Shown piece after piece: positions 7,300 to 39,285 of a DNA stretch of 57,969 nt (its first letter is position 1; each line of letters starts with the position of its first letter). The stretch is from a virus. The stretch lies in the IMG/VR virus record IMGVR_UViG_3300021400_000219, positions 1 to 57,969 of that record; one strand, 5' to 3'. The translations under genes and the position numbers were made by a program. Below the pieces are notes generated by a model. That model did not search any database, had not been told where the DNA came from, and saw nothing but the letters and a program-made list of their open reading frames with translations.

Positions 7300-10200
7300 A
7301 TGAAAAGTTTTGAAAAATTTAATAAAGAATTTAATAGACTGGCTCTTTTAGATGAAGAATTTTTAATTGCATTATAGGCTTAGAAAGAAAGAGAGTTATA
7401 TGCAAGAGTTTCTGCTTTAAATGAAGAAGAATTACCAATAGATTATTTAGAAGGTCGTATTTCAGGTGGTAGTATTAATATTGATGGAACTTCTGCTATT
7501 CGTAGAACTTGTAGTTTAACTTTAGTTACTGATGAATTAGATATTAATGATGTTTATTGGGGAATAAAAACTAAAGTAAAAATAGAAGTAGGTATGAAAA
7601 ATAATTTAAAAAAAGAGTATGGAGTAGATGGTACATAGTATCCAGATATTATTTGGTTTCCTTAGGGAGTTTATATTTTAACAAGTTTTAATACTTCTAT
7701 TTAGCTTAATGGTTATTCAATTAGTTTATAGGGTAAAGATAAAATGGCAATGCTTAATGGTGATTTAGGTGGATAGTTATTTGCTTCAGTAGACTTTGGA
7801 TCAGAAGAAATTGAAACAAGAACATTCGCGCAAGTTTCTTTATCAAATACAAATTCAGATGTATTAATTTCTGGTAATTATTATATAGAGGGTGTAGTTG
7901 ATGAAAATTTTCCAGAAGAAGTTTTTATTACAAATCCACCTAGTGATATGAGATATTCTTTTGAAGAATATATTACTAATGAATCAATAGAAATTCCTGA
8001 CAATGCAGATGCAGAGACATATTCTGCAAATACATTAGGTTTATATTATAAACATAATGGATTTTATAAATTAATTAAAAATAAAAATTTAAATACACCT
8101 AATTTAAAAAAATATCAAATATATTAGAAAGTTGTACATCCTAGTTAGATGTTTGAATATATAGGTGAAGGAGCAACAAATCAAATTATTAATGGTGCAG
8201 ATTCATTAGAATATGAAAAAGGTAAATATTATTATAATCCAGAAGATAAAGATGATTCAACTGCTACATCTTTTGATAATCAAGCAGGCGTATATGTTAT
8301 TGATTATGGTACTACTGCTTCAACAGGCCGATCTTATTGGAAATTAAAAACTATTTATAGATTAGAATTACATACTACTAAAACAAAAATTCCTTTAGAA
8401 AAAATAATTCGAGAAGCAGTTCATGCATATGCATTAGAACCTTATCATAATATTATAATTAATGATTTAGAAAATTATGGACTAGAATAGTTAACATATA
8501 AAGGTGATAAAGATTTAGTAGCTATTTAGAGAATTTCTGATGGAGAATTTTCTAATTTAGGATTTAAAGATAAAATTCATTATTGGGTAAAACTTAGTGA
8601 CACAGAAGCAAAATAGTTAAATAAAGATACTATTATTAATGATAAAGGAAAAGAAGAAATTTTTACAGTTGATCATTTAATTAAGAAAACTAATTTAATT
8701 AATGGCTCTGAACCTTTTAAATTTTCACAATTAAGTTCTTTATTAACAGAAATTCCAACGCAAGTTTATGCACAAGATCCAAGATTAAATGATATTTCTA
8801 CTTATTATGAAAAAACAGAGAATGATGAATATATTTTAACTTCAGATACTTCATTGTAGATTAATAAAACTTATTATACTCGTACAAAAAAAGGTAATAA
8901 ATATATTTATACACCAATATCTAATCCCGCTTTTTATTTAGCAATTATTTCTTATGGAGATGATATTGGATATCGCATTACTGATTTAACTTATACCGGT
9001 GATTTAATTACTAATTTGGGCGATTCTTTAACATCAATGTTAGATAAAATTAAAGATATGCTGGGAGAATTTGAATATTTTTATGATTTAAATGGACGTT
9101 TTGTTTTTTAGCAAAAAAAAAATTATGTTAATATTTCTTGGACTTAGTTAAAAAATAATGAAGATGAAGATTATGTAACTTATGCTAATGATACTACAAA
9201 ATTTTCTTTTAATTTTGAAGGCAATAAATTAATTACGGCTATTTCAAATTCTCCTTAGTTAAGTTCAGTTAGAAATGATTTTAGTGTATGGGGTAAAAGA
9301 AAAACAATTTCAGGAGAAGAATATCCTATTCATGCACGATATGCCATTGACAAAAAGCCTAAAGAATATATGTCTTTTAATGGTATATTATATTATACTG
9401 AAGAAGCAAGAAAAAATCCTTCTCCATATTATAAAGAATTAATAAGAGATGATATAGGATTACCTACAGCTTATCAAAAAAATAATAGTATTATACCTAG
9501 TTTTTTAAAAAAAGAAGATGGCTCAAGTGATTGGTGGGAATTAATGGATTGGGCAAATTATTACCAATCAAAAACAGGAGTTTATCCTACTTATACTTTA
9601 ATGCAATATTGTTCAGAAGGATTTAATGGTTCTTTAACAATAGGAGATAGGATTTATGATCTTACTCATTTTGCAAGAATTATTGTAGATTTAGACACTG
9701 GTGATAGCGCAGATACGATAAATGATCCAGAGCAATGGGTTCCTTATACACGACCTTTAAAATTAGGAGTTAATACAACTTTAACTTGGAATCCTTTTTA
9801 GCATGGATATCGTGGTTGCGGCCATACTTATGCTTAGTACAGATTATGGTATGATATGAATCCCGCTTTGCGTTCATTTATTTATAAACCGCAAATGCCT
9901 AATTCTTAGGTTATTGATATAGATGGTGGTTCACTTAATAACGATGAATTATCAGAAAAAACTGCTTTAATGGTTGATTGGCGAGAATTAATTTATCGTA
10001 TGGCAATTGATTATTTTGATGCTTAGGGATGTTCTGAAGAAGAACCTATTTTTAATAATAAACAAGAGATGGTAATAAATAAACCAGATTATTTTCTTAC
10101 TAAAGTTGCTGAATTAAACCCATATTATTATCCTACTGGATATACTGGATATGAACAATATTATACTGATATGGAAGGATTTTGGAGATAGTTATATAAT

Positions 10201-15473: not shown

Positions 15474-18203
15474 ATGGCTGAAACTCCAAATACCAAATAT
15501 TCATTTGCTAATAGTAATTCATTTGAGAATAAAAATATTAAATTTTTATCTGGTACTCAAACTGATTTAAATAAATATTTTTTAGGAAGTGGAGATCTTA
15601 AATCTGGAACAGCAGTAGAAGGTGCTTTTTATTTAACACTTGATACTCATAGATTATATATTGGAAGAAAAATTGACGATAATGGAGTAGCTAAAGTTAT
15701 TCCAATACCAGTTAATGAAGGTATTTAGGCTGTAAGTACTATTAGTAATTTGCCTAATAGAAATGAAGCTAATGCAGGAGAATTTTATTATATTAATAGT
15801 GATAATATTTTAGCTATTTATAATGGAAAAGAATGGGTGCAAATTAACCCTGATACTGATAATACTGTTGAGCTAACTTCTTTAAATATTAGCGCAGGAA
15901 AAACAATTAATGGTACTTATACAAAAGCCACTACTTATAATAGTGGAGAAACTTATTACACATATAATGGAACAATGTTTGAAGAAGTTACTACTTCTAA
16001 TGCAAATAATTTAAATTCTTATTATATTTGTGACTCTTTAACAGATGGTAAAACTTTAATTTATACTATTATGGCAAAACAATCTAAATCAGATAAAGAT
16101 GGAAATATAGATTCAACTTATTTAAATTCTTCTAATTCTTCTATCTTATCTTATTTAGTAATTCCAATTTCTGATTTAACTGGTATTAGTAAATTAGGTA
16201 TTACAAATACTGCTATAAATAATAATTCTACTTCAGTAAAATTAGATGGTGAATTTGCTGATAATACTAAAACTATTACTATTACTGGTGGTAATGGTGT
16301 TACTTTAGAAGGAAATGCTTCAGAAATAAATATTAATAGCACAACTTATAATTTACAAAAGGCTCGTAACACTTCTTAGAATGCTACTATTATGTTATCT
16401 GATAATAACTCAACAGGAAGTGGCTCAGTTGAAATTGTCGCTGGGGAGTCTTTAAATTTAACATCTGATGATTAGATTGCTAATAATCAAATTATAATTA
16501 ATCATAATGCACCAGGTAATTCAGTTAGCGCTTATCAAATTACACCAGATACTATTGCTATTAGTGGAAAAAATTATTATATTTATAATAATGACACTGA
16601 TAATTATGAATTAGTTAATGATTTATCATCTGGAGCTACGTTAGGTAATTTAACTACTTATTATGAGCTTGTTAATACTTATGGAAATAATCCAACTGTA
16701 TTAGCAGATGGTGCAACTGTTCGTATACCTTCTATTCAAATAGATAATAAAGGACATATTAATCATATTAATGATATAGGAGTTACATTACCTTCAGCTG
16801 TTAAGGTTTCTAGTATTGCAGCTGGAGTTAATGGATCATTAGTTTTAACAAATAATGATACTACATCAGCTAGCGCACCAAATGAAACTTTTTATTATGA
16901 TATTACTATTGATGGTGAAACTGTTAGAAAAGTTAATCAATCTGACTTAGGTAGTTTTTATAGTGCTAATAAAATTGATAAATTAATTAAAACAGAATTA
17001 CAAGGCTTAAACGCCTTAGTTTATAAAGGAGTTCTTCAAAATGCTGATTCAATGCCTACTGTTGTTAGCGTTGGAGATACTTATTTAATTGGTGATGGTC
17101 TTGATGATTCTATTTTAGTATTAAATGGAAGTTCACAAACTGTTTAGTCTGGAGATTTATTAATTGCTAACGGCAATGAATATATTTTAAGTACTGATTC
17201 TAGTGTAGATGATAATAAAATTTATTATACACAAGAAACAGTAAATGGTGAAGTAGTTTATAGAAGAGTTGATGTACCAACTGGTGATCCAAGTTATTAG
17301 GGCTATTATGAAAATACTGGTATTATCAATGGAACCGTTACTTGGACTTTGGTTAAATCTGGAGATATTGATACTACTTATAGTTTATTTTTTAATCCAA
17401 ACTCTACAACTAATACAGCACTTATAAGTTTACAAGATAGTAATTCTACCAGTCAAGGTTAGGTTCGTTTTGTTGGTGGTAACTATATTTCAATAGATAC
17501 TTCGGGTTCAGCTGCTAATAATGGAACTATTGTATTTAATCATATTGAATCTGACCTTATTACATCTACTGCAGCCAATGTAGCTATTGGCCCAACAGCA
17601 AATAATATAACACAGCCTTTAAACTCTGAAAGCACTTTTAATGTTCCTACTTTAACAGTAGATAGATATGGTCATATTACTGCTGGATCTAATGTAACTT
17701 ATAAATTACCTTTAAGTAATAGTTATTCTTATAATTTAACTAATACAACTGCGGCAACTGGAACACCCCAGTATGATACTACTTTAAGATTCTGGAGAGA
17801 TAATGATAGTTTAGAATCTTCGATAACTTTTATAGGAGATCTTTAGAATGATGGTGGAATCAGTGTTGCAGCAAATACTAGTACTATTGAAATTAAACAT
17901 AGAACTCTTACTTTAAGTACTGCTAATAATACTACCTCTATTGCACCAGGTGGCAGCTTTAGTGTTTTAACAAATATTGCTACCGATAAATATGGGCATA
18001 TTACAAATGCTGCTTATACAGAATTTACATTACCAGCATATAAATTAAATAATTCTTATGATTCTAATACTCATACTATTACAACTTCATTATATGATAC
18101 ACAATCTAGTAGTACAGTTGCGGGCAGTGCAATTATTAAATATACAAGTGATACTTTAAATATTAGTTCTACTGCAACTGGCGATATATATACTTATTCT
18201 GTT
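15474..18203 (+). CDS. Long tail-fibre protein (about 909 codons) with repeated ...YGHIT... modules
   Basis: AAAGGAG ribosome-binding site plus ATG at 15474. I verified frame 0 codon by codon from 16380 to the TAA at 18201-18203. Repeats such as VDRYGHITAGSNVTYKLP, TDKYGHITNAAYTEFTLP and IDNKGHINHINDIGVTLP are present. Confidence 0.6.
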
Positions 18204-18240
18204 AATTTAGAATGGGAAGATTTTAATTAAAAAATAATTT

Positions 18241-18278
18241 AAAAGAGGGATATAAAAATATTTTATATTCCTCTTTTT
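18241..18278 (+). terminator. Rho-independent terminator hairpin after the tail-fibre gene
   Basis: agagggatat / atattcctct form an inverted repeat of about 10 bp with one mismatch around an AT loop, followed by ttttat. Confidence 0.55.
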
Positions 18279-18297: not shown

Positions 18298-21200
18298 ATG
18301 AATCAAGAGGTTTTTTAGCCAGTGAGAGGAACTGAATCTTCTATTCTCGCTCAAACTCCTCAAAAGGGGTATGTTTATTTTGCTATAGATACTAAAAAGA
18401 TTTTTTATAGTGATGGTGAATCTTTTTTACCTATGGGAGGTAATACTGGTGTTTGGTATGGATTAATGCAATATGCAGAAACACCAGAACCTACTCAAGT
18501 TGAATTTGATTTTTCAATAGATGAAATTGAAGGTAATCAAGATATTAGCGATGGAAAGTATAATGTTCCTAATTTAGATGATTTAATTTTTAATACTCCT
18601 GATGGATGTTTTTATAGAGTTAAAGAAATAGATTACGATGGTGAATCTCCTTTATTACATTGTAATAAATTAACTGTTTCTGGAGGCGGTGGCGGTAGCG
18701 GCTCTGGAGGAGGCGGAGGTTCAACTGGTTCTATGACAGTTTCTCGCTTAGGTGATTAGACAATTAATACATTACAAGGTAATGATTGCTTCATTAAATA
18801 TAAATTTATAGCAACTGATGCCTCAGGAGAAGAAACTGGTCCAGGAACAGCTTCTTTATATGTAAATGGTACATTGCGTGCTACTTTTGTAGCTTAGCAA
18901 GGAGAAAATGAAATAAATGTTGGACCTCATTTAATTGTAGGGTCTAATAGTATTCGTTTAGTAGTTAGTGGTAGTATTGGTGGTACAAGTAATATTCAAT
19001 AGTCTAAGAATTGGACTATTATTTCTACCAATTTAACAATTACATGGAATTATGATGAAACTACTATTAATACTGGATCTAATATTACTTTTGATTGGAA
19101 AGTTTCTATTTCTTTACCACATACTACATATATTTTAGTTGATGGTATTTATCCTATTTCAATTCCTTCTGTTGATAATTAGTTAAATAAAACTTATACA
19201 GTTTCTCGTGAACAATATTATTTAACTCATGGTAGTCATTTAGTAACTATGTATGCAGAAGCAGAAATAGGTGGAACTGTTTTTAGATCTACTCCAGTTT
19301 CTCATACTATGATTTGTGTAGATTAGGGTGAAGCAAGCACTATTATTAGTATAAATTTACCTAAAGATACCGTAGATTAGTATGATACATTAACAATTCC
19401 TATTATATTTTATAACCCAGCTACAGCTGGTTCTAGTAATAAAGTTTCAGCTACTTTGAGAGAAGATGGCGCAGATGTAGATATTTGGCAAGACTATGAA
19501 AATGCTAAAATTTATGAATGGAATTATACTCCAACTACTCCTGGTACTAAAACACTTTCTATTTTAAGTGGTACTTCTGAAGAAGTATTAACAATTAATG
19601 TTAATGATTTAGGATTAAGTACTTCTGAAGTAAGTGGTTATGATTTTAAATTTAAAGCCAGTGATATTATTAGTAATAATGCTTTAAAAAATTGGTCTTT
19701 TGATCGAGAAGTTGCCTCATCTTATAATGTAATTCATGAAACTATTATTCCTTCATTTTCAGAAGAATTTGATTGGGTAAATGGTGGTTTAAAAAGTGAA
19801 TTAGATGATAAAGGTAATCGTAGAAATTTTATTAGCATTAAAGCAGGTAATACATTATCTTTTAATTATGCTCCATTATCTAATACTAGTAAAACAAAAG
19901 GTTTTACTTTAAAAGTTATTTTTAAAGCTACTGAATGTAGAGATTATGATGCAACTATTTTAAAAATTGGTGATGCATTAGAAGGCGATGGAGTTTATTT
20001 TAAATTAAAAGCAAATGAAGGAATTTTTAAATCTAATAACTCAATAATTACAGTGCCTTATTGTGAAAATTCTTATATTGAATTTGAAATTGATATTTGG
20101 CCTAGTGAAAATAATCAAGGTTCTTATTTGATGACTTGGATTGATGGTGTTCCAGCTAGCGCTTCTAGGTATGAAAGTGATGATAACTTTTATCAAGGTA
20201 ATCCTAAAAATATAGTTATTGGTTCAGATGATTGTGATGTGTAGATATATCTATTAAAGGTGTATCAAAAACATTTAACAGATGAATAGCATTTAACTAA
20301 TTTTATTATGGATGCCCCAAATGCTATTGAAGTTATTTCTAGATATAATAGAAATAATATTTTAGATGATAATGGAGAAATTTCATATACTAAATTAATT
20401 GAAAAAAATCCTGATTGTGATGTTTATTTATATGAAATTCCTAAAATGACACAAACTAAAAAAGATAAAGTTAAAAATTGTACCTATATGCGTTATAAGG
20501 GTAAACGCAGAGGAGAAATTGCCCCTTGGCAGACTGCAGATGGTGTAACAATGGCTGTTTAGGGTACCTCATCTGCGGCTTATGGATTAGCAGCTTTTAA
20601 TTTTAATTCCACCTTTACAAAAGGATTTATAGATTATTCTCATTCAGATGAAGGAGAACATATTGATAATTGGGCCATGGATGAAAATGCAATTCCAATT
20701 GATGATTATAATACTAAAGTAAATGTTGCATCTTGTGAATGCGTTAATAATGCTTTAAATCAAGAGTGGTATGAAAGATTAGTAAATCATGTTTATATTA
20801 CAGAGTATAAATAGAAAAATCCTAAATCTCGTCATACTATGCAATTTATGAATATGGGTGTTGTATTTATTAAAGATAATAATCCAGAAACTTAGGCTAA
20901 CAATACTGCGGATAATGTTTTTAAAGATACTCCTGGTTATATTTAGAACCCATTTTATAAAATGTATTCTGCGTGTAATATGGGAAATATTAAACGTAAT
21001 GAGGGCGTTTTCTCAGATCCATCTAATCCATATGATGTTATAATGGAAAATCCAGATAACCAATCAGTTTATTAGCAAATGACTGGTCGTGTGGAGTTAA
21101 ATCCAGATACTGGAAAGTTAGAATTATATGGAGAATGGGAAGATACAAAGTTCTATCCATATGTAGATGCTGGTGACTTTATTGAAACAAAAGATTCTCG

Positions 21201-24200
21201 AGCACAAGCTGGGAAAACTTACTATGCACGAGTGGAGGTTAATGGTCAAGTCAATTATTCTCCTGTAGATGTTACTGCAGAAGTTGTGGGAACAGACGTT
21301 TCTACTTATTATGAAAAAGATAATGATGAATATATTTTAACCTCTGATGTTGTTGCTCAAGCTAATAAAACTTATTATAATCGTTCAATGCAAAATGATG
21401 AAGAAGTTTTTACTGAAGTAACAGATATCATTTTGCCAGTAGAAGGTTCTAATGTTAAAAATTATTATGAACAAGTTACTACTCGCACAAAAAATGCAAC
21501 TGAAGTATTTGAATGGAGAGCGACTCCTGATAATGCCTGGGCTACTATTTTAGAAACTCGCGGAGTAGATATGCAAGCTGAGGCTCGTAAAGCTTGGACA
21601 GATTTAGTAGCATGGTTTGCTATTAATAATCCAAATGCCGCAACTAATGAATTACTTCCAGAGCCTGTCACTTATGGTACTTATACTTTCAAGGGTTATA
21701 CTTCACGTGCAGATAGATTAGATATCAATGGTAATCCTATGCCAGTACATGCTTAGGGTAAAAATGGCGTACCTAAATCTATTTTGGCAGGTTTAGCTAT
21801 TTCTGATTATAATGGTACATATACAAGAGATACAAAAGAATATCGTATGGCCAAAATGTTACATGAATGTGAAGACCATTTAATTATGGATGAAATTGTG
21901 TTCCATTATTTATTTATAGAGCGTCATGCTTTAATTGATAATGTTGCAAAAAATACATTCTGGCATACAGAAGATTTATAGCATTGGTCTATGATTAAAG
22001 ATTATGATAACGATACTTCGGATGGTAATGACAACTCTGGCCATTTAACTTTAACCTATGGTTATGAGGTTTTAGATCATGTTCATCATGACCCTCGTGA
22101 ATCATTTGTTTTTAATGCTTCTTCTTCAGTTTGGTTACATTTTATTGAAGGTTTAATGCCTGCACGTGTTCGTGTGTATTAGGCTTTAGATACAAGTGAA
22201 ATTGCGGCATGGGACGCAGAACCTTATTTAAATATTTTTAATGAATGGCAAAGTAAATTACCAGAAAGAGTTTGGATTGAAGATTATTATAGAAAGTATT
22301 TGCGTCCATTAGAAGTCTATAATGCTACTCAATTCTTACCGATGTTAGAGGGCGGGAAAAAGACATATCAAAGAAAGCAGTTTGAAACATATCAAGAGGC
22401 TTATATGTCTTCTGAATATTTTGGAAGAAAATGTCAAAGTTCTTTAATAGATATACGTGCTAATGGTAAAGATATTTATGAAATGAAATTTCCTATAAAA
22501 ATGTATGCAGATTGTTATATTCGTGCTGCCGCAGGTTCTGGTCATGATCCTAATGTCCGTGAAAGATATAAACGTGGTGAAATAGCGCAAATATCTTTAC
22601 CAGTTCGTGGCGATGCCAATGATATGACAACTTATTTTTATTTAGCTCATTATATTACTTCTTTGGGTGGTATTGAATAGTTAAAACCTAAAAAAGTAGA
22701 TATTAGTGCAGCCTATAGATTAAAAGAATTTTCAATGACTACTATTGGTGATGAATCTTATTTTGTTAAAACAGAAGATTCTTCTATTGTTGATGGTAAG
22801 AAATATTATATACCTACATATAATCCAGTAGCATATCCAGAAGAAGAGAGTTTAACAGTTTATTATGAAAAAAATATAAATAATGAATATGTTCTTACTC
22901 AAGATTCAGCTATAGACACAAGTAAAACATATTATATTTTATCTTCTTATTCATTAGTTAGTGAACCAACTGTTGCTAATTTATCTCAATATTTTGAAGA
23001 AATTATTTCTGGATAGAATTTAAATTTAACCACAGCGTCATTTAAAGCAAATCGTATGTTAGAAAAATTAGTAGTACAAGATTGTCCTAATATTGCTAAT
23101 TCATTAGATTTGTCAGCTTGTACTAATTTAAAATATTTAGATATTAGACGCAGTGGTTTTACAGGTATTATTTTAGCTTCTAATGCTCCTACTGAAACTT
23201 TATTATTAAATGATCCAACTACATTATCATTTAATAATTTATCAAGAATTAATACATTTGAAGTTGGTTATTCTCGTTTAAATACTTTATTTTTAAATAA
23301 CATTGATAATAGTCCAGGTTTAAATAGTAAAACATTAGTATCTGGCGTTACTTCTCAAACTGATATTATTTCATATAATAATTAGGAAACTTAGAGACGC
23401 AGATTATTAAATTATAATTTATAGAATATACAATGGCAATTAAATGATGCAAATGATATTGATTCTAATTTAAATATAAAATTATTAGATGAATTATTAA
23501 ATCAAGAATTAAGTACTCCTTATTCTGGTGATAGTAAAATTCCTTTCTCTTAGGGATTATCAGGTTCTTTAATAATTAATGAAAATGCTTACTCTGGATC
23601 TGAACCATTAACTATTTATAATAAATATGTAAAACAAGATGTATTTCCTAATTTAGATATTATATTTACTGCGAATAATTCTAAATTATATAATATTTCT
23701 ATTTTAGATGGTAATGGTTTAGAAATTTGGCGTAAAAAAGCAGCTTCTAATTATACTATTACTAGCACATTTTTATCTTCTGGACCATTAGGTTCTTATT
23801 ATGATTTAAATGATGTTACAGTTAAATTACCAACTGCTTCACACACTTTTACATTTACTAATACTTGGTCTATTACAGATGCAGATACTGGCGTAAATAT
23901 TGGAATTATTAATAACGCAGAACCTATTTATAATACTCCATTATCTCAAAATATTATTATCACTCCTATTTTTAATGAAGAAATTCGTTAGTATACCGTT
24001 AAATTTATGAATGGTGATTCAATTATAAATTAGGATAATTTATTATATGATTATGGAACAAAAATTAATACTATTATACCTTCTATTATTCCTAGTAAAA
24101 ATGATGATAATTTAGATATTTATGAAACATATGCATTTTTAGGTTATTCGTTAATACCAACTGCTACTACTGCTTTAACATTTACAGATAAATTCGAAGT

Positions 24201-25059
24201 TAATGCAGATTTAATTTATTATGCAGTTTATACAGATGTTATTAATACTAAAAATTCTATTAATGTTAATTATGATAATTTTAATTATAAATTAGAATCT
24301 GCGGGATATGTAGATAGTAAAGATAGTTCTTTTAATATTACTACTGGATATACAATATCACCTAAATAGGGTTTGATTTTAACTGGTAAAATTACTATTC
24401 CAGCTTATTATAATGGATTACCTATTATTAATATTACAGGTTTTGGATCATCTTAGTCAGCTACTGCATCTACAATTCAAAGAGAAATAAAAGGTATTTT
24501 CTTTGAGGAAGGTACTAAAATTAGAGTTTTTGATAGTGGTGCTTTTGCTAATATGCCTAAATTAAAATATTTAGAGATTCCTGATAGTGTTCGAGAAGTA
24601 GGATCTAGGGCTTTATAGAATACTAATTTAAAATTAACTGATACAAAAAATAATAAAATTTATTATTTAGGTTCTGAGACTAGTAATATTTATAAACTTG
24701 GTACATAGGCTTTTTCTAATTGTATTGATGGTGATTGTGAAATTTTATATATTGCACCTTCTATTTCACAATTTGAATTAGCACAACCTACAGACTGCGT
24801 TTTTGGTAATTTTAATTCCGCACATAGTTTAACTACTATTTATATTGGTTATGAATACACTCCTTCTTAGTTAGATACTTCTAATTTAGAGAGACATCCT
24901 TTTAGATTAAATCCAAATTTACCAAGCACTTTATAGCAAGTATGTTTATATATTCCTAATGGAAAATCCATAGATGGATTACCATCTTGGATAAATCCTT
25001 ATTGGTATGATACACGTTATCAAGTAGATGTATTAAGTGTTAAATATGCTTCAATTTAA
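18298..25059 (+). CDS. Giant multi-domain ORF (about 2253 codons if TAG is sense). It has an N-terminal region with a Gly/Ser linker, a lectin or jelly-roll-like segment, a higher-GC enzymatic-looking domain and a C-terminal BspA-type leucine-rich-repeat region
   Basis: AAAGGAG ribosome-binding site plus ATG at 18298. Ten consecutive track ORFs (18322, 19456, 20308, 21079, 21784, 21991, 22300, 22735, 23056 and the stop before 25084) are all in frame 1. I read every junction and found only TAG. The first TAA is at 25057-25059. This could still be more than one protein if TAG terminates in some contexts. Confidence 0.5.
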
Positions 25060-25083: not shown

Positions 25084-25299
25084 ATGAAAAAATCTATTTT
25101 ATATGAATATTTAGGAACTAATGGTATAATTCGTTCAGGGGTGTTTTTAGAAGGAATTTATTCAATTAAAAAAATAAATTTAATTGCAGATGTTGGAAAA
25201 CAATTAACTAAAGATAATAAAACTTTTTGTTTTTCTGTTATAGTCCCAGAGAATGAAGTATCTGAATGGTATGAAGTTCCGGTCAAAAATAATTAATAA
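25084..25299 (+). CDS. Small hypothetical protein (70 aa)
   Basis: AAAGGAG ribosome-binding site plus ATG. Matches track ORF 25084 and ends at a TAA TAA double stop. Confidence 0.5.
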
Positions 25300-25325: not shown

Positions 25326-25359
25326 AAGAGTGAGAGAGTAATATCTCTCTCACTCTTAA
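25326..25359 (+). terminator. Perfect 12-bp inverted repeat hairpin (agagtgagagag / ctctctcactct); terminator or RNA-processing site
   Basis: Direct reading. The downstream tail is AT-rich but not a clean U-run. Confidence 0.4.
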
Positions 25360-28556: not shown

Positions 28557-28580
28557 TTATTTTTCAAATATTTGCTTTAA

Positions 28581-28680
28581 AAATTTTGAAAAGTGATTTT
28601 TGTTTTGGCGAGCGGTTAGGAGGGTCCTGGCCGGCCGCTTTATAATATGCGCGCACGTGTGTGCGTGCAAAATTTTCAAG
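28581..28680 (+). ncRNA. Candidate structured RNA or regulatory element (copy 1). It comprises a conserved 22-nt box, AAAAATTTTGAAAAGTGATTTT, followed by a GC-rich segment with two hairpins
   Basis: This is a GC island in an AT-rich intergenic region. The hairpins are AGCGG...CCGCT and an 8-bp stem GCGCGCAC-gtgt-GTGCGTGC containing one G-U pair. It is a paralogue of 52972-53076 and sits immediately upstream of a strong terminator. No tRNA cloverleaf can be drawn. Confidence 0.3.
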
Positions 28681-28728
28681 GGAGAAAGATATATAAAAAA
28701 TATTTTTCTCCCTTTTTTTTTATATTGG
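28677..28728 (+). terminator. Strong rho-independent terminator
   Basis: AAGGGAGAAA ... TTTCTCCCTT stem followed by a T9 run. Confidence 0.7.
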
Positions 28729-28756: not shown

Positions 28757-28804
28757 TTTTAAAGATTTTATGAATAATTCTAAAATAGAAAGGGGTGCTG
28801 AAGA

Positions 28805-31800
28805 TTGGCGCTCTTTAAAATATCTAAAGGGGATTCTAAAAAATTATTACCAGGTAATAATTAGAATCCAAATGTAAAATATGCTAAAGAAGGTTTTGCA
28901 TATTTTACAACTGATGATGGAAAATTTTATGTAGATATAGCAGGTGATGGTTTAACTACGCCCGCAATTATAAGAGATAAAGAATCAGATGGAAATCGAG
29001 TTCCTTTAAATGCATATTAGGCAGATTTTGCTGGAGAAGCGGAATTTGCTAATTTATCTAAAATTAGTTCACGAATTGCTTTTGGAACCTGTACAACCAA
29101 TGGAAATGTAATCAATAAAATTATTAGTATTGATACTAACGAATTATAGACATTAACTAGCGGATCAATGATAGCTATTTACTTTTTAAATGGTAATACA
29201 GCTGTTAATCCAAAATTAGAAATTGATTCAATATAGTATCCAATTTATTATAATTTTACTACTCCAATTGGAGATAGTATTCATTCTTCTTGGGAATCAG
29301 GTTCAATTAAAATTTTTACTTTTATGAAAGGAACAGATTCTAGTCCAGAAGATCGTTTTATTGTTACTAATCCTAATTTTGGTTCTAATCCTATTACAGA
29401 TAAAACTACTGTTTTAGCTAGCAATATGAAAATTTATCAAACTCATAATATTGAAGAATCAGACTTACAAGAAAGTGGTTGGATTAGATTTGCTTCATTA
29501 GATACTAACACTAGTAATTAGATAGGTCAAAAAATTTTTGATTTTAATATTTTCAGAACTTATTCCAGAGGAATACCTGAAACTTATAGTATTAGAGTTA
29601 TTGCAGGATGGTCTAATTGTACTATATTATAGTTAGGCGGAAACGTTGGAACACAAAGAATTACTCAATTTCGTGTATGTAAAGATAGTACGGAAAAAAA
29701 GATTTATTTTGAGCTATATTTATCAATGGATACTCCAACAAATAATAAAATCTATATAAGAACAATTAACTATACTAATAATACTCAATTAACATTTTTA
29801 AATGAAGCCGAAATTAAATCTGATTCAGAATTAGCTACTTGGACTTTACCTTTAAAACAAGCTAGTTTAATTTCAAATGCATCTATAATGCTTTCTTCAA
29901 CTTCTCGAGGATTATTTTTAACAGATTCAACTGAAAAATTATATGGAGCAATTTATAATAATGCTTCTAGTTTATGGGTTGGCGCAACTGCAACAAATGA
30001 AAATATTCATACTGGTAGTTTATGTTTTCATGCAGGTAAGGATACAAATGGTATTATAAATCGTTCAGCATTTTTAGCTGTAGGTAATAATGATACTGCA
30101 ACCACTGCTACAAATTACGTAATTGCTTATGGCTCAGGTGGTGGTCCATCGTAGCCAATATATGTTGATACTTATGGAAAAGTATAGGGTATTACAGGAG
30201 CTATTGCTAATGATACAACTGGTAATGCTGCAACTGCTACTGCGGCAAATATAACATCAACTGATAATGCTATTGTACGATTTGATGGTACTCAAGGTAA
30301 GTTTTAGAATAGTCAAGCTTGGGTTAATGATAATGGAGGTATTACTTCAAATAGCGCTATTACAGTAGGCGCAGGTTATTTTATAATTAAACCCTTTTCT
30401 TCTGAATATGATACAACAGGCACTCATGATGGAATTAAATTTTATTTTAATCATGATAGAGAAAATTATAATCCAGATACATTAATTACTTATTATTCTT
30501 TATAGGCTACTAATTTTTATGGAGTTTTAAAAGGAAATGCAGATACAGCTACAGCTTTGTCTTCTACTGGAACTACTGCTTAGTTTTGGCGTGGAGATAA
30601 TAGTTGGAGCAGTATTTTATCTGGAGCAGGAGCAAGAATTACTTTTACAGACACAGTAAATAATCGAACTATGTGGATTGGTCATCAGTCTTCACAAGAG
30701 TGGATGGGTTTATATGAAAGCACTTCTAATAATACTAAAGTATTAATTGCTCGTAATACGACTTCAAATAAAATTGGTATTGGCACGGCAACTCCAGATG
30801 CAGATTATAATATTACTTTATAGAGTTCAGTTTATTCAACTGATTTTATAACTGCTAAAGGTTTATATTTATATGGTTCAATAGGTTCAGATAAAACTAC
30901 TCGACAAATTACAAGTGATGATTTAAAAAATATTTATTTTAAAATCAATGGTAATATTTCATTAGTAGTTAAAGATGATTTGGTTGGTCCTGGATAGTCT
31001 TATTCTAATCAAATTAATTTAGGTGCTACTGAGCGACTGTGGAAAAAAGCATTTATAAATCATTATTATTTACCAAGACCTACAAATGGAGAAAGCACTG
31101 ATTGGAATACTCGCATTGCAACTACTGAAAAAAATAGTTTTACTATTGAAGAATTCGGAACATCTACACTTAATAAACCAACTAATCATTGGTATTATGG
31201 TTTTATTGGGCGTGGCTCAGATCAAGATTATTTATTACAAATTGGTTTTGGAGAAACTACTACAAGAGTAGTTTATAGAGCTAAAATTTCTAATAACTGG
31301 TCTGGCATGGCATTATATGATATCCCTTCTACTGGGCCAGTTGCTATTGGCTCTGGGGTAAAGCCTATTTATTTAGATAGTAATGGATTTTTACAAGCTT
31401 TTGCTTCTACAATAGGCACTACAACTAAACCAATTTGGATAGATGCAGGAACTATTAAAGCTGGAAGTTATGAATTAAAAGCGACTGTAGACAATGGTAC
31501 ACAACATTATTTAACTATGTATACTGCTGATGGAAGAACTATTGGCCCTGCAAGTAGTAGAACTTCAACCGTTTTATTATCTTCTACAGTAGCTGATACT
31601 TTGAAATTAACATCAACAGCAGATGCTAATTATTTAACATACGTAAGCAGTAAAGGTACTTGGAAAACTGGTATGGGCACCAATTCCAATGAATATTGGA
31701 TCTATTCTAATGATTTATCTAATTGGCGTGTTGCTATAAATAATTCTAATTTCCATTTACGTTCTTCAAGTTATTAGAAAAATACTACACCTTCTTCAAA

Positions 31801-34800
31801 TGTTGCTGGGGCAGGTATTTATACAAGAGATATTGACGATAACTATATTTGGGTATTACGAGGCTATAAAAATACTTCTAATACAATGGGTGCTTAGTTA
31901 TATACTTATGGACATAGCACAAATGATACTGGCACAAGCACTTTTTCAATTTATAGAACATCTACCCCTGATACTTATATAAATTGGACTGGTGGAAAAA
32001 TTGGTAATAGTATTTATCCTTGGGCAAATGCAACTTATAATATTGGTTCAAATGATTTAGCTTGGAATCAATTACATTTAACTTATGATTCTTCATCTGC
32101 TAGAAATAAAGGTATTCGTTTTATGAATGCTGGAACTTTAGTAGGTAATATAGGTGCAACAGCACAAGGATTAGGTATTTATGGTAATGGTCATTTATAT
32201 TTAAGACCTTCTTTAACTGAAACACAAGGTATGGAAATTACTTCTACTGCAGTTCAACCAGCAACAAATCATGATATTAATTTAGGAACAACTTCGTTAA
32301 GATGGAATTAGATTCATGCTAAATCTTATTATATTGAAGATACTCGCAATGAAGATTTAACTGCAGCTACAAGTGATAAAGCTATAAGATTTTTCTTTAG
32401 TAATAATAATATGCCAAACACTCAATGGTGGTCTGGTATTCATGTTCGAGGTTGGAATGGTGGATATTCATCATGGGAATTAGTAGGTCCAGCTGGTAAT
32501 GTTGATCAAAGAACTACTCCATTATATATAAAAACAAGTAATATTAATACTGATTGGGGCGAATGGCGTCCAATTTTAGATAGTTATAATGGTGTTATGC
32601 GTTTTCATTATGGAGGCACTGGAACTACAACAAAAATATTAATTACTATAAATAATACAAACTCTTGGATGGCATCTTTTACTTTAAGATTATATTAGGG
32701 ATATCAAGCTACAGATTTATAGATTAGCGGTTATAATTATAATAATACAGATACTCCTTGGTCTTCACCTCAAGCTATTGTATTAGGTTCAACTGCATAC
32801 GATGGCCCATTAGTATATTTTGGATATACAGATACATAGAAATTATGGGTAGCTGTAGATGGCGCTAGGTATACAGGCGTTGATGTTTTTGGCATTACTA
32901 ATGGTTATACTCAAATCAATTTAAAAGATTTTTGTACTATTACTAATGTTTCTACTTTACCTGGAACACTTCAAAAAACAGTAAGAGCTTATAGTCGTTT
33001 AACTCATAATGTTGTAAGCGATACTGGTGATATTACTTTACATAATTAGCCAGGAACTTTTGCTTTTTCAGGAAATGGAGATCCTTGGAGTGGAAATGAT
33101 TGGGTTGGATTTTAGGTAGGAAATAATTTAGATAAATTTTAGATTGTTAGAGTTAATTCAAATAATTTACTATTCCGTTAGAATGATAGTGGAGGAGTTA
33201 ATACTTCTTGGGGAACTTGGGAAAAAATATTAACAGATGTAAATACTTCATGGGTAGCTTGGACTCCAGGAACTACTGCAGGACCTTAGGCTAATTTATC
33301 ATTAAGTGGAACTAATATTCAAAGTGCCGCGATTCCTTCTGCTAGCACAACAGCAAGTGGTATTGTAACTACTGGAGAATAGTCTTTTACAGGTAAAAAA
33401 ACCTTTAATTGGTTGCGCGTTGTTAATAATTCATCTAATAATGCTGATGATGCACTTTTTTATATTGAAAGTAAAAATAGTAATGATTGGGCTTAGAAAA
33501 TTCTCTTAGATACTTTTAACTATGGTTTATATATTCAAGGAACCGGAACTTCATTGTTAAAAGTTGGAACAAATAATAATTTTACTGTTAATTCTACAAC
33601 TGCAGCTTTTGGATAGTAGGCAAATCCTATGACAATAACAATGCATGGACGATTAGTTATAGATAGAACCGATATAACCTATACAGCAGGAGATGAGGGT
33701 GAATAGGGACAATCTATCCCTCTTATTAACATAAAATATAAAAATACTGGCACGGGTGTTTATGATCAAAATATACTTAATGCCATAAAAACAACAGAAA
33801 CTGGTGCCACTGTAGATGCTACAACGATAGCGCTAACTTCAGGTGGTGGTAGTCTGATTTTAGCTGCCGGAGAGCATATGAACGGATTATTAACAAAGAA
33901 TGGTCCTTTTAAATATGGAAGTGAAACATTAATTTTATCTTCAGATTAGAATGTTGAAATGATGACTGGTTGTCATAACTCAAATGGAACTTATACAGCT
34001 CGCACAAGAGTTGGTTCGATCGGAATATAGATGCATTTTCCTTATAATAATTTTAATAGAAACCTTCAACCTAGCGCAGCGGTAGAAAGAGGAATGTTTT
34101 TATATGGTGCTAATATTATAACAGAAACACCTACAGTAACCAGTGATGAAAATCAATTTGTAGCTGGAACTTATTATCGCATAGAAAAAACATCAGGTAA
34201 TCGTATTTACTATGCAGCTACTATGTATAATACTAATAATGATTTTAAATATTTAAGTTTAAAAATGCCATATAATCAAACTTCATCATTTTTAATGTGG
34301 ACAGATGGATATGTTGGTAACCGCATAATACCCTGGGCTAATAATAATTATGAATTAGGATCTTCAGATTACAAATGGAAAGAAGTGCATGCAACAACAT
34401 TCTACGGCACTTTATCTGGGACAGCAACTACTGCGAATAATTTAAAAACGACACTTATGACCAATGCTTCAACACCGGTTTTCGTTTTAGGAGCCACTGG
34501 AACGTCTGCGAGTACTTCTCAGGCTGTATATAAGGCATATCGTACTTCAACTGCTCAAGTATATTTTAGAGGAGATACTGGTGTCTTAATGGGTGCAGCT
34601 TGGAATGACTATGCAGAATATCGTCAAGCAAAAAATAATATAGAAATTGCTCCTGGCAGAGTAGTAAAAGAAGTTGGAGATGAAACATTAGAATTAGTGA
34701 CTGAAAGATTACAACGAGGATGTTCAATAGTTTCTAATACTTTTGGTATTAGCATTGGTGAAAGTGAAACTAATAAATTGCCATTAGCAGTATCTGGACG

Positions 34801-35023
34801 AGTGTTAGCATATCCATACGAAGATAAAGAAGAATTTAAAAATCATATTGGTTGGCCAGTTTGCTCTGGTCCTAATGGAACAGTAAGCATTATGACTGAA
34901 GAAGAAGAAGAAAAATATTCAAGCCGAATCATTGGCACCATATCCTCTGTTCCAAGTTATGAAGTATGGCACGGGGGGGCTGATGTGGTTGTTGATGGGC
35001 GTGTTTGGATAAAAGTGAGGTGA
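28805..35023 (+). CDS. Giant tail-fibre or receptor-binding protein (about 2072 codons; N-terminus MALFKISKGDSKKLLPGNNQNPNVKYAKEGFAYFTTDDGKFYVDIAGDG...)
   Basis: GAAAGGGGTG ribosome-binding site. A frame-2 TGA sits at 28799-28801, then a TTG start at 28805. Track ORFs 29324, 29726, 31307, 32123, 32411 and 34031 are all in frame 2 and joined only by TAG. The terminal TGA is at 35021-35023. Confidence 0.55.
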
Positions 35024-35027
35024 AAGT

Positions 35028-36493
35028 ATGGCTTTAAAAGAAACAAAAGCAACAATTGATGGAACTGGGACTGATAGTATAAAATTTGGTCAGAGTGCTG
35101 TTGCCTCAGGTGCCTATTCTATTGCAATAGGGTATGGGACAAGTGCTACTGCTGAAGAGGCTGCGGCACTAGGGAAGTACGCCGTAGCTAAATTAGAGGC
35201 AACCGCTGTAGGAGCTTATGCTAATGCTCTCGGCAATTACTCAGTAGCATTAGGATTTCTGTCTAATGCACCTGCTGATCTTTCGACTGCGGTAGGGACT
35301 TATGCTACTGCTTCTAACGAGGAGTCTACTGCATTAGGACATTGTGCAGAAGCTGCCGGTAATTAGGCTACTACATTAGGGTATTTTGCTAATGCCTCAA
35401 AAGACGGTGCTACTGCATTAGGAGCTTATGCAAATGCTACTGGAATAAATTCAACAGCAGCAGGATTTAAAGCAGTGGCTTCTGGCACTACTGCAATTGC
35501 ATTAGGGCCAGAAACTAACGCTTCTGCTTCTTCGGCAACTGCTTTAGGACAGTATGCAAAGGCTTCTAAGAGTTGTGCTTTGGCGATAGGGTATGGCGCC
35601 AAAGCATCAGGAGTTTATGCTTTTGCCATAGGAACCTATGAATCAACAGCTTCTGCAAATTATACAACAGCCATAGATGGATATGCTACAGCAGATAGAG
35701 CAATAGCTGTTGGTGGAAACGCGGTTGGAGCTAATTCATTAGCCTTAGGATTTGCTTCAAAAGCTTCTGGCATTAATTCAATAGCCATAGGAAAAGAAGC
35801 AAATACAGCACAAAATTATTCTACAGCTTTAGGCTATAAAGCAAATATAAATACTTCTCATAGTGTTAATTGTATGATGCTTGGAGGATCTACTTAGGTT
35901 AATATTTATTATTATGGAACACTACGTTCACAATCAGATATTAATGATAAAATTGATGTTTCAGAAATTCCAAATGGAGCAACTGAATTATTTAAATAGC
36001 TAACTCCAATAGAATATTATTATAATTATAGGGATGAATATATTGAACCAGAAGAATGGTTAGAAGAAGAAATTGAAATAAAAGATGAGAATGGAAATAT
36101 TGTATATGATGAAGAAGGTAATTCTTTAAAAGATATTATTAGAACTTGTAATTTATCAAAAGAAGAATAGGAAAAACGTAAAAAATATGGTCAAGGAACA
36201 TATGATAAAGAAGCTTGGTAGCAAGGATTAAAAAAACATACAGATCCTCAAGTAGGTTTATCGGCATAGGAATTATTACAAGCATTAGAAAATATTTATG
36301 GAAATTCTCGAGCTTTTCCATTAGTAGGAGATAATTTTGATAATTTTGAATTAGAAGAAGGAGAAGAAATTCCTGAAGATATTGAACATAGATATAATAT
36401 TGCTTATATAAATTTAATTCCATTTTTAATTAAATCAATTAAAGAATTAGATGCTCGTATTACTGAGCTTGAACGAGAAAAAGGAGAAAATTA
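35028..36493 (+). CDS. Tail-fibre protein (about 488 aa) with an Ala/Gly-rich head-repeat region and a C-terminal intramolecular-chaperone-like domain (peptidase S74-like)
   Basis: GAGGTGA ribosome-binding site plus ATG at 35028. Frame 0 runs through track ORF 35475 to a TAA. The repeats AxGxxAxAxGxxSxA resemble a trimeric fibre or adhesin head. The C-terminus (...RSQSDINDKI...HTDPQVGLSAQELLQALENIY...IKELDARITELEREKGEN) resembles the endosialidase-chaperone domain by recall. Confidence 0.65.
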
Positions 36494-36499
36494 AATATT

Positions 36500-37516
36500 A
36501 TGAAATATAATGATGTATTATTAACTTTTGTTATTCCAAGTTATAAAGAAACAGAAGAACAAATGTTTCCATTATTATCAAGTATTTCTAATTAGTTAGG
36601 AATTGATAATAATAAAATAGAAATAATTATTGTTCGAGATGGAACAACTGAAGTAAATTTAGATATTTTTAAAATTTTATATTTAAATATTAAACAAATT
36701 TTAATGAAAGAGAATAAAGGTCCAGGAGTTGCACGTCAAGTAGGCTTAGATGCAGCACAAGGTAAATATGTAATGTTTTGTGATGCTGATGATATGATTC
36801 ACAATTCAGGTATTATTGGTGCAATGATTCAAGAAATGGAATAGTAGCAATGGGATATTTTAAAAACACCTTGGTTAGAAGAGTGCCTAGATTCAAATAC
36901 TAATTAGTTAATTTATATTAATCATGAAATAGAAAATACTTGGATGCATGGAAAAATGTTTAAAAAATCATTTTTAGATAAAAATAATATTAGATTTCAT
37001 CCAGATTTAAGAGTGCATGAAGATACTTATTTTCTTTCTATAGCGACTGATTATACTGATAAAATAGGTTATCTAAATATTACATCTTATGTTTGGCGTT
37101 GGGGTAGAGATAGTATTACTCGTCATGATGAAGGAATTTATACTTATGAAGCAACACCCGAATTTATTAGGGCTTGTTGTTTGGCGCATGAGATTACAGA
37201 AAAAGTAGATATATCAAAAATGGAATATAAAACAATTTAGTTAATAATATATCAATATTTTAGTTTACATTCTTTAAATTGGATACAAGAAAATAAAAAA
37301 GAATATAGAGAATTAGCAGAGCAGGCTTTAATTCAATATATGAAGCCTTATTGGAAATATTGGGAAAAAGCTTCTCCAGAAACTATTGCAAAAATTTATA
37401 ATGAAGAACGTAATAAAAATTTTAATACTCAAATCGAATTTGAAACCCTTGGAGATTGGCTTATTAGATTAGGATTTATAAATCCACAAGGAGATAATGA
37501 AAATGGACTACAATGA
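36500..37516 (+). CDS. Family-2 glycosyltransferase (GT-A fold; DxD motif ...FCDADDMIH...)
   Basis: AAAAGGAG ribosome-binding site plus ATG at 36500. Frame 2 runs through track ORF 36944 to the TGA at 37514-37516. The N-terminus LLTFVIPSYKETEE...IIIVRDGTTE and the CDADD motif are classic GT2 features. Confidence 0.7.
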
Positions 37517-37946: not shown

Positions 37947-38409
37947 ATGGTTTTATGTGATTGTTAAATTTATCTACCACTCTTTTATATAAGGCATCGC
38001 CAGTATGATTACCGCCTAAACCTTTATAAGCGACATAATCTTCTTCAAACTATTCATATTCATCAACTGTAATTATATGTTCTGGGGTTAATAAGAAAAT
38101 ACACTAATCTCTAAACTATTTTCCTTGAAGTGATAAAACACCAATAGTGAGATTTTCTACGTTATTAGATAATACTTCTATTTCTTCTTTCATTATTCTA
38201 TCATTTTCATCTGATTTCTATTCTACTTTATCAATTTTTTCAGTTAATTCATCTACTATTTCTTCACGCATCTCTTTCATTCGTTCAGCTTTTACACGAT
38301 TAACACTTTCTTTTTCTAATTTAATAATATGTTTCGCCCATATAGCAATTCCAGCTGCAACAATACCACAGATCCACTATAACCAATATTTTATAAAAAT
38401 GTCTAACAC
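37945..38409 (-). CDS. Membrane protein with an N-terminal transmembrane helix plus a coiled coil (about 155 aa; candidate lysis-associated or antiholin/spanin-like protein)
   Basis: On the - strand, GAAAGGAGGAGGA ribosome-binding site plus GTG start. The sequence begins MLDIFIKYWLQWICGIVAAGIAIWA... and has three internal TAG codons. It ends at a TAA at the terminator. The + strand track ORF 38147 is its low-complexity antisense. Confidence 0.5.
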
Positions 38410-38496
38410 TTGTCCTCCTCCTTTCATTATCATATATTATCAAAATTAAATAAATTTAATTATAAAAAATTACCCTAAAACGCTTTTGGACAAAAA

Positions 38497-38532
38497 GTAA
38501 TAATAATTTTAAAACAATTTTTAAATATAATG
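38497..38532 (+). promoter_or_regulatory. Possible promoter region with the TTGGACAAA motif and a perfect TATAAT hexamer
   Basis: cttTTGGACAAAaagtaataataattttaaaacaatttttaaaTATAAT lies in the divergent intergenic region. Confidence 0.3.
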
Positions 38533-38582
38533 CAAGGGAAAAGATATTAAATAAATTATAGAAAGAAGGTTTAGTCTGAATA

Positions 38583-39018: not shown

Positions 39019-39031
39019 GGAGAACTATAAT

Positions 39032-39285
39032 ATGAATTAGCCTATTAATAATCCAATGCAGTTTATGCAAGCGATTAGAGGAGGACAAAACCCTCAACAG
39101 TTGATGTTGCAAATGCTTCAACAAAGAATGGGAAATACTCCCATGGGTTAGAATTTAATGCAATTAGCACAAAATAATGATACTGCAGGTATTGAATAGA
39201 TAGCCCGCAATCTTTGTGCTTAGCGAGGTCTTGACTTTGATTAGGAATTTTCTTCCTTTAAACAACGCTTGGGGCTATAATCCAA
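39032..39285 (+). CDS. Small Gln/Met-rich hypothetical protein (about 84 aa)
   Basis: AAAGGAG ribosome-binding site plus ATG. The frame is open apart from TAG codons and ends at a TAA. Confidence 0.35.

Follow-up and report, generated by a model that had tools for sequence, protein, structure and literature searches.

Positions 18298 to 25059 of a 57,969-nt stretch of viral DNA (IMG/VR record IMGVR_UViG_3300021400_000219; the whole stretch is hereafter called the window) carry a series of open reading frames (ORFs) that lie in one frame and are separated by TAG codons. This arrangement raises the question of whether the region encodes one giant protein or a chain of small ones, and what its product does. 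An earlier note on the sequence had proposed either one giant protein or several proteins fused by readthrough. Our analysis indicates that 18298-25059 is very probably a single phage gene written in genetic code 15 (TAG = Gln), with a product predicted to be a modular, tail-associated fibre for host recognition.

Decoding of the giant reading frame

Codon counting showed that the plus-strand frame runs from an ATG at 18298 to a TAA at 25057-25059 and comprises 2,253 codons, with 31 in-frame TAG and neither TAA nor TGA; the mosaic ORF of about 2250 codons described earlier, in one frame with only TAG interruptions, was thus confirmed. TAA and TGA together occur 96 times in one and 323 times in the other of the remaining frames across these 6.76 kb, so the open frame is far beyond chance. 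Under the standard code, ten ORFs of at least 40 aa were called in the giant frame, starting at 18322, 19456, 20308, 20677, 21079, 21784, 21991, 22300, 22735, and 23056. The earlier statement that all ORFs of the region share a frame holds for these ten and is otherwise slightly too strong, as a 61-aa standard-code ORF (20858-21043) lies in a different frame. No standard-code ORFs were listed after 23385 because the pieces between TAG codons there contain no ATG, GTG, or TTG. Codon 7 is already a TAG, and only a hexapeptide would result from standard decoding.

ORFs of at least 100 aa cover 109% of the whole window when TAG is read as a sense codon; the standard code gives 54%, and reading TGA as sense gives 65%. 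All large ORFs of the window (27/27) terminate in TAA or TGA, and nearly all hold in-frame TAG, at 0.8-2.3 per 100 codons in the plus-strand structural block and at a lower, uneven density in the minus-strand replication genes. The whole window is TAG-recoded and uses code 15, for which metaproteomic proof exists in crAss-like phages (PMC9523058).

The density in the replication genes (38000-57969, minus strand), which are also recoded, was very uneven. The PolIII alpha gene (47473-51405, minus strand) contains 2 TAG in 1,311 codons, and a dUTPase-like ORF (41971-42567, minus strand) and ORF 46446-47066 contain none; a RecJ-like ORF (53694-55493, minus strand) has 13 and a primase-like ORF (55810-56925, minus strand) has 7. 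This unevenness may reflect early versus late expression.

TAG accounts for 40% of the Gln codons in the giant gene. The closest full-length relative with DNA, P0006 (locus L003), whose gene likewise has 31 in-frame TAG, was aligned with TAG masked as X. Of 29 aligned window TAGs, 5 faced TAG and 7 faced CAA or CAG, the others being scattered; the non-TAG partners were therefore CAA/CAG in 7 of 24 cases, against a Gln background of 2%. The reciprocal comparison, from the L003 TAGs to the window gene, gave 6 CAA/CAG. The TAG at 20560 (aa 755, within the peptide AVQGTSSAAYGLAAFNFNSTFTK) corresponds to the Gln of a QGTSS motif that is Q in 39 of 39 homologs, and the TAG at 19378 (aa 361) falls in a column that is Q in 38 of 39. 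Among relatives using the standard code without internal stops (P0061, P0080, and P0116), 7 of 40 aligned TAG positions were CAA/CAG, including the aa 361 and aa 755 columns, and the Gln of QGTSS is CAA in P0116. These alignments indicate that TAG is decoded as Gln.

A protein search returned 141 homologs, mostly 1.9-2.9 thousand aa long, of which P0004, P0006, and P0010 align across 95-97% of the query with 52-54% identity. The homolog alignments continue straight through the TAG positions. Some of the full-length single-protein relatives belong to standard-code phages and contain no internal stops, and the frame therefore encodes one protein rather than a chain of small ones. The earlier proposal of a single giant protein stands, whereas the mechanism is genome-wide reading of TAG as Gln and not readthrough.

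Domain architecture of the predicted protein

The features of the gene and its flanks are listed below; the domains are predictions, modelled in large part on homologs. LRR stands for leucine-rich repeat, AF2 for AlphaFold2, pLDDT for the predicted local distance difference test, and MFE for minimum free energy.

18241-18277, plus strand: intrinsic terminator of the upstream gene (15474-18230), a 17-bp hairpin with a U run; MFE -17 kcal/mol, z -4.4
18298-25059, plus strand: giant gene, with Shine-Dalgarno AAAGGAG 8 nt 5' of the ATG and end-to-end homologs
18298-18681, plus strand: N-terminal module (aa 1-128) with the motif G-Y-V-Y-F-A-I-D-T-K-K-I-F; modest pLDDT of 55-80 in the P0006 model
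18682-18732, plus strand: Gly/Ser hinge GGGGGSGSGGGGGSTGS (aa 129-145), family-conserved and predicted disordered
18733-19632, plus strand: three tandem Ig-like/macroglobulin-like beta-sandwich domains (aa 146-445), from the P0006 AF2 model and Foldseek
19660-20262, plus strand: lectin-like jelly roll of LamG/ConA type (aa ~455-655), all-beta, pLDDT ~90 in the P0006 model
20383-22752, plus strand: CotH-type atypical-kinase-fold domain with an appended C-terminal beta-sandwich (aa 696-1485), from AF2 of a homolog and Foldseek
20560-20574, plus strand: QGTSS motif (aa 755-759), invariant, its Gln from the TAG at 20560
21085-21597, plus strand: variable insertion in the CotH-like domain (aa ~930-1100), marked by a homology break, the gene's richest GC (0.355), and pLDDT below 50
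21937-21954, plus strand: DNVAKN (aa 1214-1219), candidate catalytic loop D-x4-N, with D1214, K1218, and N1219 invariant
22003-22017, plus strand: YDNDT (aa 1236-1240), candidate metal-binding Asp motif, with Y1236, D1237, and D1239 invariant
22753-23013, plus strand: spacer (aa 1486-1572) with two more copies of Y-x-[LV]-T-x-D-x6-K-x-Y-Y; its start is disordered in the P0006 model
23014-23517, plus strand: classical, cysteine-containing LRR (aa 1573-1740), family profile against the F-box/LRR-type chain 8glv_EM, E 1.3e-5
23518-24327, plus strand: beta-rich non-LRR region (aa 1741-2010) with a weak, non-significant Listeria-Bacteroides repeat (Flg_new) signal, E 0.18
24328-25056, plus strand: BspA-type LRR (LRR_5) domain (aa 2011-2253), from Pfam, PDB, and the family profile
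25084-25296, plus strand: 70-aa gene directly 3' of the giant gene, syntenic in recoded relatives
25326-25357, no strand assigned: GC-rich 13-bp hairpin closing the two-gene unit; MFE -22 kcal/mol, z -7.2

The terminator at 18241-18277 is the 5' boundary of the two-gene unit, and promoter-like matches inside the giant gene were at chance level (59 versus 53 ± 6).

The N-terminal half was modelled on residues 1-687 of P0006 (59% identical; pLDDT 83.6) and not on the window sequence itself. Residues 1-128 form a probable virion-attachment module. Homology of P0105 to the window protein is limited to this module, at 57% identity, and to the C-terminal region; the N-terminal module is exchangeable. 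A related motif, G-x-[YFA]-[YF]-[FL]-x-[TI]-D-[TD]-x-[KR]-[IFL]-[YF], occurs at 15621, 18367, and 28892 in three fibre-like ORFs of the window (15474-18230, 18298-25059, and 28802-35023), which suggests that several different fibres may dock at one virion site.

The Gly/Ser linker reported earlier is present, 2 nt from the position then given. Its reading as synthetic-looking was rejected, because the segment is conserved in natural homologs as a hinge: conservation of G129 and G131 across the family reaches at least 90%, and the equivalent in P0006 (127-141) has pLDDT below 50. The hinge retrieves scFv linkers from the PDB trivially. For the domains that follow, Foldseek searches with the P0006 model matched tandem Ig/MG domains of C5, A2ML1, titin, and the MpIBP adhesin (E ~1e-10). 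The lectin-like region named in the earlier note was recovered as a LamG/jelly-roll fold at ~19.66-20.26 kb, to which we infer that the matches to the NTNH/BoNT progenitor-complex chains 4zkt_B and 9qc7_B (E 9e-8, rmsd 5.1 Å over 227 columns) belong. This region lies within the PHROG 14959/24896 matches and within the match to Hankyphage (aa 201-704). The jelly roll is lectin-like in its modelled fold, and sugar binding is predicted at most.

The central domain was modelled on the P0006 segment, which is 70% identical to the window core (pLDDT 82.9, predicted template modelling score 0.84). The sole PDB fold matches at E ≤ 0.001 were to Bacillus cereus CotH (5JDA/5JD9; E 5e-7, probability 1.00, TM 0.66 on the target; Foldseek). 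Pfam CotH (PF08757) scored above its gathering score (23.8) in 5 of 22 homolog segments aligned end to end, with a best E of 5e-11; P0116 reached 37.7 bits and P0113 29.0 bits. Conserved residues were scored in a 40-sequence full-length alignment and a 22-sequence central-domain alignment, and the invariant positions included K721, Q755-G-T-x-S759, K807, D1214, K1218, N1219, Y1236, D1237, and D1239. In the P0006 model, DNVAKN lies in the loop that links a helix to the two strands following it, the placement known from protein kinases. D1214 and D1237 are 23 residues apart, the same spacing as D228 and D251 of B. subtilis CotH, whose mutation inactivates that protein (PMC7821199). The length of the central segment varies from 548 to 898 aa among homologs, and the insertion at 21085-21597 holds two copies of the Y-x-L-T-x-D-x6-K-x-Y-Y motif.

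The earlier note had placed a GC-shifted, enzyme-like domain here. An enzyme-type fold (the CotH atypical kinase) is indeed predicted, although it spans 20.38-22.75 kb and is wider than the segment proposed; the GC shift is real and modest, at 0.34 for 21079-22680 versus a window mean of 0.29 (sd 0.034, 1.6-kb windows), and GC at third codon positions is 0.16-0.18 there versus 0.03-0.11 in the remainder of the gene. We do not read this shift as proof of foreign origin, and a foreign GC island was not adopted, since the shift is ~1.5 sd and the region is also the most conserved in the family. Homology breaks along the gene, as judged from the alignments, do show modular exchange.

The Y-Y motif seen in the spacer and the insertion, in the form [YF]-x-[LVI]-T-x-D-x6-K-x-Y-Y and often after YYEK, occurs in 7 copies in three structural ORFs of the window (8830-8877, 16533-16580, 17181-17228, 21178-21225, 21331-21378, 22762-22809, and 22888-22935). 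At the DNA level the copies show up as a 77-nt repeat family; they fall in stretches that are variable or disordered, and similar motifs occur in homologs from other phages.

A BspA-type LRR region had been assigned to 23.0-25.0 kb, and the peptides quoted in its support (IPDSVREVGSRAL and IYIGYEY) are present. The assignment holds for the C-terminal ~24.33-25.06 kb (~0.7 kb, not 2 kb); 23.0-23.5 kb is cysteine-containing LRR and 23.5-24.3 kb is beta-rich. The classical LRR is conserved with Hankyphage and phage NatCom_3357, and PF13855 is on record for some homologs; the window sequence of this region by itself gave no PDB or Pfam match. For the beta-rich region, PF09479 is on record for homolog P0012. 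At the C-terminus, the last 265 residues matched the PDB entries 4fs7 (4.3e-5), PcpA 4cp6 (5.8e-5), and 4gt6 (6.7e-5), and the family profile matched 4gt6 (8e-18) and TpLRR (1.4e-7) as well as 4fs7 and PcpA. PF13306 is on record for most close homologs. By these matches, the LRR_5 domain of the window protein appears marginal, short, and confined to aa ~2011-2253; it is the probable distal receptor-binding end. Close relatives mostly end in LRR_5 and more distant ones in DUF6273, some with a diversity-generating retroelement (DGR). These differing ends indicate that the distal module is swapped, as expected of receptor-binding proteins.

The giant phage protein family and its genomic setting

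A profile search with the central domain retrieved 4,322 representatives of 50%-identity clusters at E ≤ 0.001, most of 1.5-2.8 thousand aa, and 1,895 representatives at E ≤ 1e-30. Family members are typically ~2,000 aa long with the domain at residues ~650-1500. Scanning the whole protein against Pfam returned only sub-threshold LRR_5 and noise, the PHROGs scan returned two families only, both of unknown function, and megablast of 15-35 kb against deposited phages gave no match. On homology over the Ig-like/lectin-like/CotH-like/LRR body, we assign the protein to the giant CotH-containing phage tail-fibre family of the Hankyphage DGR-target type.

In the window, 7297-11064 matches a tail protein and 35019-36494 a tail spike/fibre (PHROGs; neighbours match 1887, 4636, and 5668). 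In NatCom_3357, the homolog follows the tape measure protein, Dit, and a 2.4-kb gene and precedes the holin; P0061 follows Dit_N and Gp10_C genes and precedes reverse transcriptase, holin, and lysin. The 2,245-aa homolog of Hankyphage p00, which carries the DGR variable repeat, follows the tape measure, hub, and minor tail protein and has been named a tail fiber (PMC6199706; PMC12135933). The relatives thus occupy the receptor-binding-protein slot of tail modules. Of the host-adhesion or decoration function suggested earlier, adhesion is the best reading; in view of these homolog positions, a role in the tail fibre or in receptor binding is more likely than decoration.

Comparison with Hankyphage p00 (BK010646) revealed a similar size, a homologous Ig-like/lectin-like region (aa 201-704, 21% identity, E 1e-22), homologous LRR, a position after the tail-tip genes, and the D-x-R/V-A-K-N and Y-D-x-D-T motifs besides QGTSS (in Hankyphage: QGTSS, VDQRAKN, and YYDGDT). 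Hankyphage differs in its N-terminal module, in its standard code, and in its DGR-variable lectin-type C-terminus with variable and template repeats (VR/TR) and a reverse transcriptase, whereas the window protein has TAG = Gln and an LRR_5 C-terminus, with no TR/VR or reverse transcriptase seen in the window. No TR/VR-like repeat pair was found in the window, and no window ORF was recognised as a reverse transcriptase in a scan that was not exhaustive. We therefore rejected the reading of this gene as a DGR target, its LRR_5 C-terminus not being of DUF6273/lectin type; the DGR-variable lectin end is here replaced by a BspA-type LRR. The standard-code relatives at L007 (P0061) and L002 (Hankyphage) end in DUF6273 followed by a reverse transcriptase, indicating a DGR. 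For P0080 and P0116, the clusters comprise 1,052 and 509 member sequences, respectively, which would be consistent with hypervariable C-termini.

The Hankyphage class comprises CotH-containing variable proteins of more than 2,000 aa, described as the target cluster 'PC_00012' (bioRxiv 2020.04.01.020958) and as 'domain group 3', which has carbohydrate-binding motifs and LRRs (bioRxiv 2024.11.15.621889). The best match among deposited phage genomes was the hypothetical protein XTK82179 of NatCom_3357 (Ca. Heliusvirales, PV036416), at ~27% identity over aa 161-1669. It shares the QGTSS, DSRAKN, and YDFDT motifs, a BspA-like C-terminus, and a position between tail-tip genes and holin, but has 1,673 aa, the standard code, and a 47.6-kb siphovirus-type genome; it has neither the N-terminal module and its Gly/Ser hinge nor a long insertion.

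The Bacillus CotH spore-coat kinase (5JDA/5JD9; PF08757) has the same atypical protein-kinase-like fold as the modelled phage domain and the same D...D spacing. Compared with it, the phage domain shows ~10% identity and is about twice as long, carries an additional beta-sandwich as well as a variable insertion of 170 aa, and forms part of a 2,253-aa fibre; Bacillus CotH has the substrates CotB/CotG, and the Pfam CotH model does not detect the window sequence. The last ~240 residues have the repeat type of the LRR_5 surface proteins TpLRR of T. pallidum (6mlx), PcpA of S. pneumoniae (4cp6), and the gut-bacterial 4gt6 and 4fs7. In the TpLRR/PcpA type these are extracellular binding modules, whereas here they form the terminal module of a phage protein, with few repeats and a score under the Pfam cut-off. 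Code-15 gut phages (crAss-like, Lak, and other clades; bioRxiv 2021.08.26.457843) likewise have in-frame TAG in structural genes, TAG = Gln, and low GC. The window differs from them in having TAG also in replication genes and no suppressor tRNA within its bounds, and from crAss-like phages in a replication module that resembles SPbeta and Enterococcus phage genes (PolIII alpha ~41% identity). In BFVD, comparable predicted folds occur for Bacillus phage G gp353, for gut siphoviruses, and for crAss-like phages ('internalin-like', 'spore coat protein-like'). Code 15 and the giant protein family have both been described already, and nothing in the window falls outside known categories; the distinguishing marks of this gene are TAG recoding, the N-terminal module with the Gly/Ser hinge, the long insertion in the kinase-like domain, and a tip formed by BspA-type LRR where other family members have a DGR-variable end.

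Several neighbours are also of note. The 70-aa gene is conserved at L003 (16477-16680) and L006 (7255-7458), though the giant proteins there are only 32-56% identical, and it is a candidate fibre accessory, chaperone, or assembly factor. ORF 28802-35023 is a second giant recoded ORF (2,073 aa, 31 TAG), very rich in Ser/Thr/Asn/Gly, with a fibre-end-like C-terminus and no PHROG match. ORF 35019-36494 contains Ala/Gly-rich repeats with a 42-nt period and GC up to 0.40, and ORF 36473-37516 encodes a GtrB-like glycosyltransferase beside the fibre genes, a possible surface-modification (moron) gene. An intergenic element is present in two plus-strand copies with 77% identity (28561-28720 and 52955-53075), each with a conserved AT-rich promoter-like part (AAAAATTTTGAAAAGTGATTTT) followed by GC-rich hairpins; the first copy has two GC hairpins and an intrinsic terminator (MFE -54 kcal/mol, z -8.3). 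The element had no Rfam match and is a candidate phage small RNA.

Competing readings and significance

As a host-recognition fibre, the protein would be anchored to the tail or baseplate by its N-terminal module, with the disordered Gly/Ser hinge and the three Ig-like domains serving as a spacer. Host surface structures would be bound by the jelly roll, by both kinds of LRR, and chiefly by the LRR_5 domain at the distal end. Full-length synthesis presumably needs a phage suppressor tRNA-Gln(CUA) encoded outside the window.

Several results weigh against this interpretation. ARAGORN found no tRNA, CUA suppressors included, either within the 58 kb of the window or in those flanks of recoded relatives that were retrieved, and an Rfam scan found no tRNA or other family within the window; absence from the window is not absence from the phage, the window being part of a genome whose homolog-carrying counterparts are contigs of up to 180 kb. 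The Pfam LRR_5 match of the window protein has an E of 6.4e-5 and reaches 23.3 bits, under the cut-off of 27.7. The central sequence of the window gave no Pfam match at E ≤ 1 and no PDB sequence match, and PDB sequence searches with the central-domain profiles A2 and A5 and with the P0116 segment never reached CotH, so the CotH assignment depends on the model of a 70%-identical homolog and on transitive homology. The putative equivalence of D1214/D1237 to CotH D228/D251 comes from spacing and not from superposition. The scarcity of ATP outside cells sits awkwardly with a kinase acting there.

One rival reading takes the CotH-like core for a scaffold or binding module that lacks catalysis, and the protein for an adhesin only; we regard it as a serious contender that falls a little short of an even chance. 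In its favour, the window sequence has diverged too far to be picked up by the Pfam CotH model, the domain is interrupted by a large variable insertion, ATP is in short supply where such a kinase would act, and CotH proteins of Mucorales act as invasins. Against this, D1214, K1218, N1219, D1237, D1239, and QGTSS are invariant down to 23% overall identity in both alignments, in a family of 4,322 clusters, a degree of conservation that would be difficult to account for if there were no active site. Because the D-x4-N and D-x-D motifs are invariant across the family, the CotH-fold core is probably an active phosphotransferase rather than a dead scaffold, with activity as such given an even chance.

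An injected or cytoplasmic effector kinase that manipulates host signalling, instead of a tail fibre, would account for the invariant kinase-type motifs and for the need of ATP, which is available only inside cells. Such a role has been suggested, as speculation, for CotH-containing DGR targets (bioRxiv 2020.04.01.020958). We consider it unlikely: the gene sits in the tail-fibre slot of several unrelated phages, Ig-like repeats with a lectin-like fold and LRR_5 are typical extracellular adhesin architecture, the C-terminal modules undergo exchange or DGR diversification, as those of receptor-binding proteins do, and a protein of 2,253 aa with many beta-sandwich domains is an improbable ejection substrate.

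Partial or regulated suppression, yielding functional truncated products (e.g., the N-terminal module plus spacer) beside the full-length protein, also has a low probability, marginally below that of an effector. A suppressor tRNA competes with release factor 1, so that some termination is expected and 31 TAGs compound the inefficiency, and TAG makes up only a minority of the gene's Gln codons (the 40% given above). The TAG codons, however, fall inside folded domains and are unrelated to domain borders, and only 5 of 29 aligned TAGs are also TAG in L003, so no particular stop site appears to be under selection; moreover, 31 TAGs demand efficient decoding, and the conserved C-terminus shows that the full-length product is selected.

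A string of separate small proteins, each ending at a TAG under the standard code, is highly improbable: at least ten standard-code ORFs can be called mechanically and no suppressor tRNA was seen in the window, but the 6.76 kb hold zero TAA/TGA at 29% GC against 96 and 323 in the other frames, most inter-TAG pieces after 23385 are without any start codon, homolog alignments (including uninterrupted standard-code genes) cross TAG positions that lie inside folded domains and at invariant Gln columns, and every large gene of the window has the same TAG pattern.

Returning to the fibre, we tentatively propose, as a possibility that is more doubtful than catalytic activity by itself, a virion-borne, active CotH-type phosphotransferase that would phosphorylate either a component of the host surface upon contact or, while the phage assembles, its own Ser/Thr-rich fibre proteins, in a recoded lineage in which a fixed BspA-type LRR would have taken the place of the DGR lectin end. 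Phosphorylation of its own fibres at assembly would parallel the patterning of the spore coat by CotH. If this is true, the virion would carry a kinase whose targeting module can be swapped, an enzymatic activity so far undemonstrated for tail fibres.

For gene annotation, standard-code calling breaks this 6.8-kb gene into meaningless fragments, and reading TAG as Gln recovers a coherent protein. The gene is thereby placed in a giant phage protein family of more than 4,000 clusters, which includes the Hankyphage tail fibre and in which the kinase-like core is strictly conserved. That core has been noted in three papers and never studied functionally; phage CotH-family kinase domains fused to hypervariable lectin domains have been called 'currently unstudied' (PMC8008677). 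Why a receptor-binding fibre keeps an apparently intact kinase active site is a puzzle that is directly testable, and the recoded, DGR-free, LRR-tipped variant described here offers a natural comparison, its targeting module having been exchanged.

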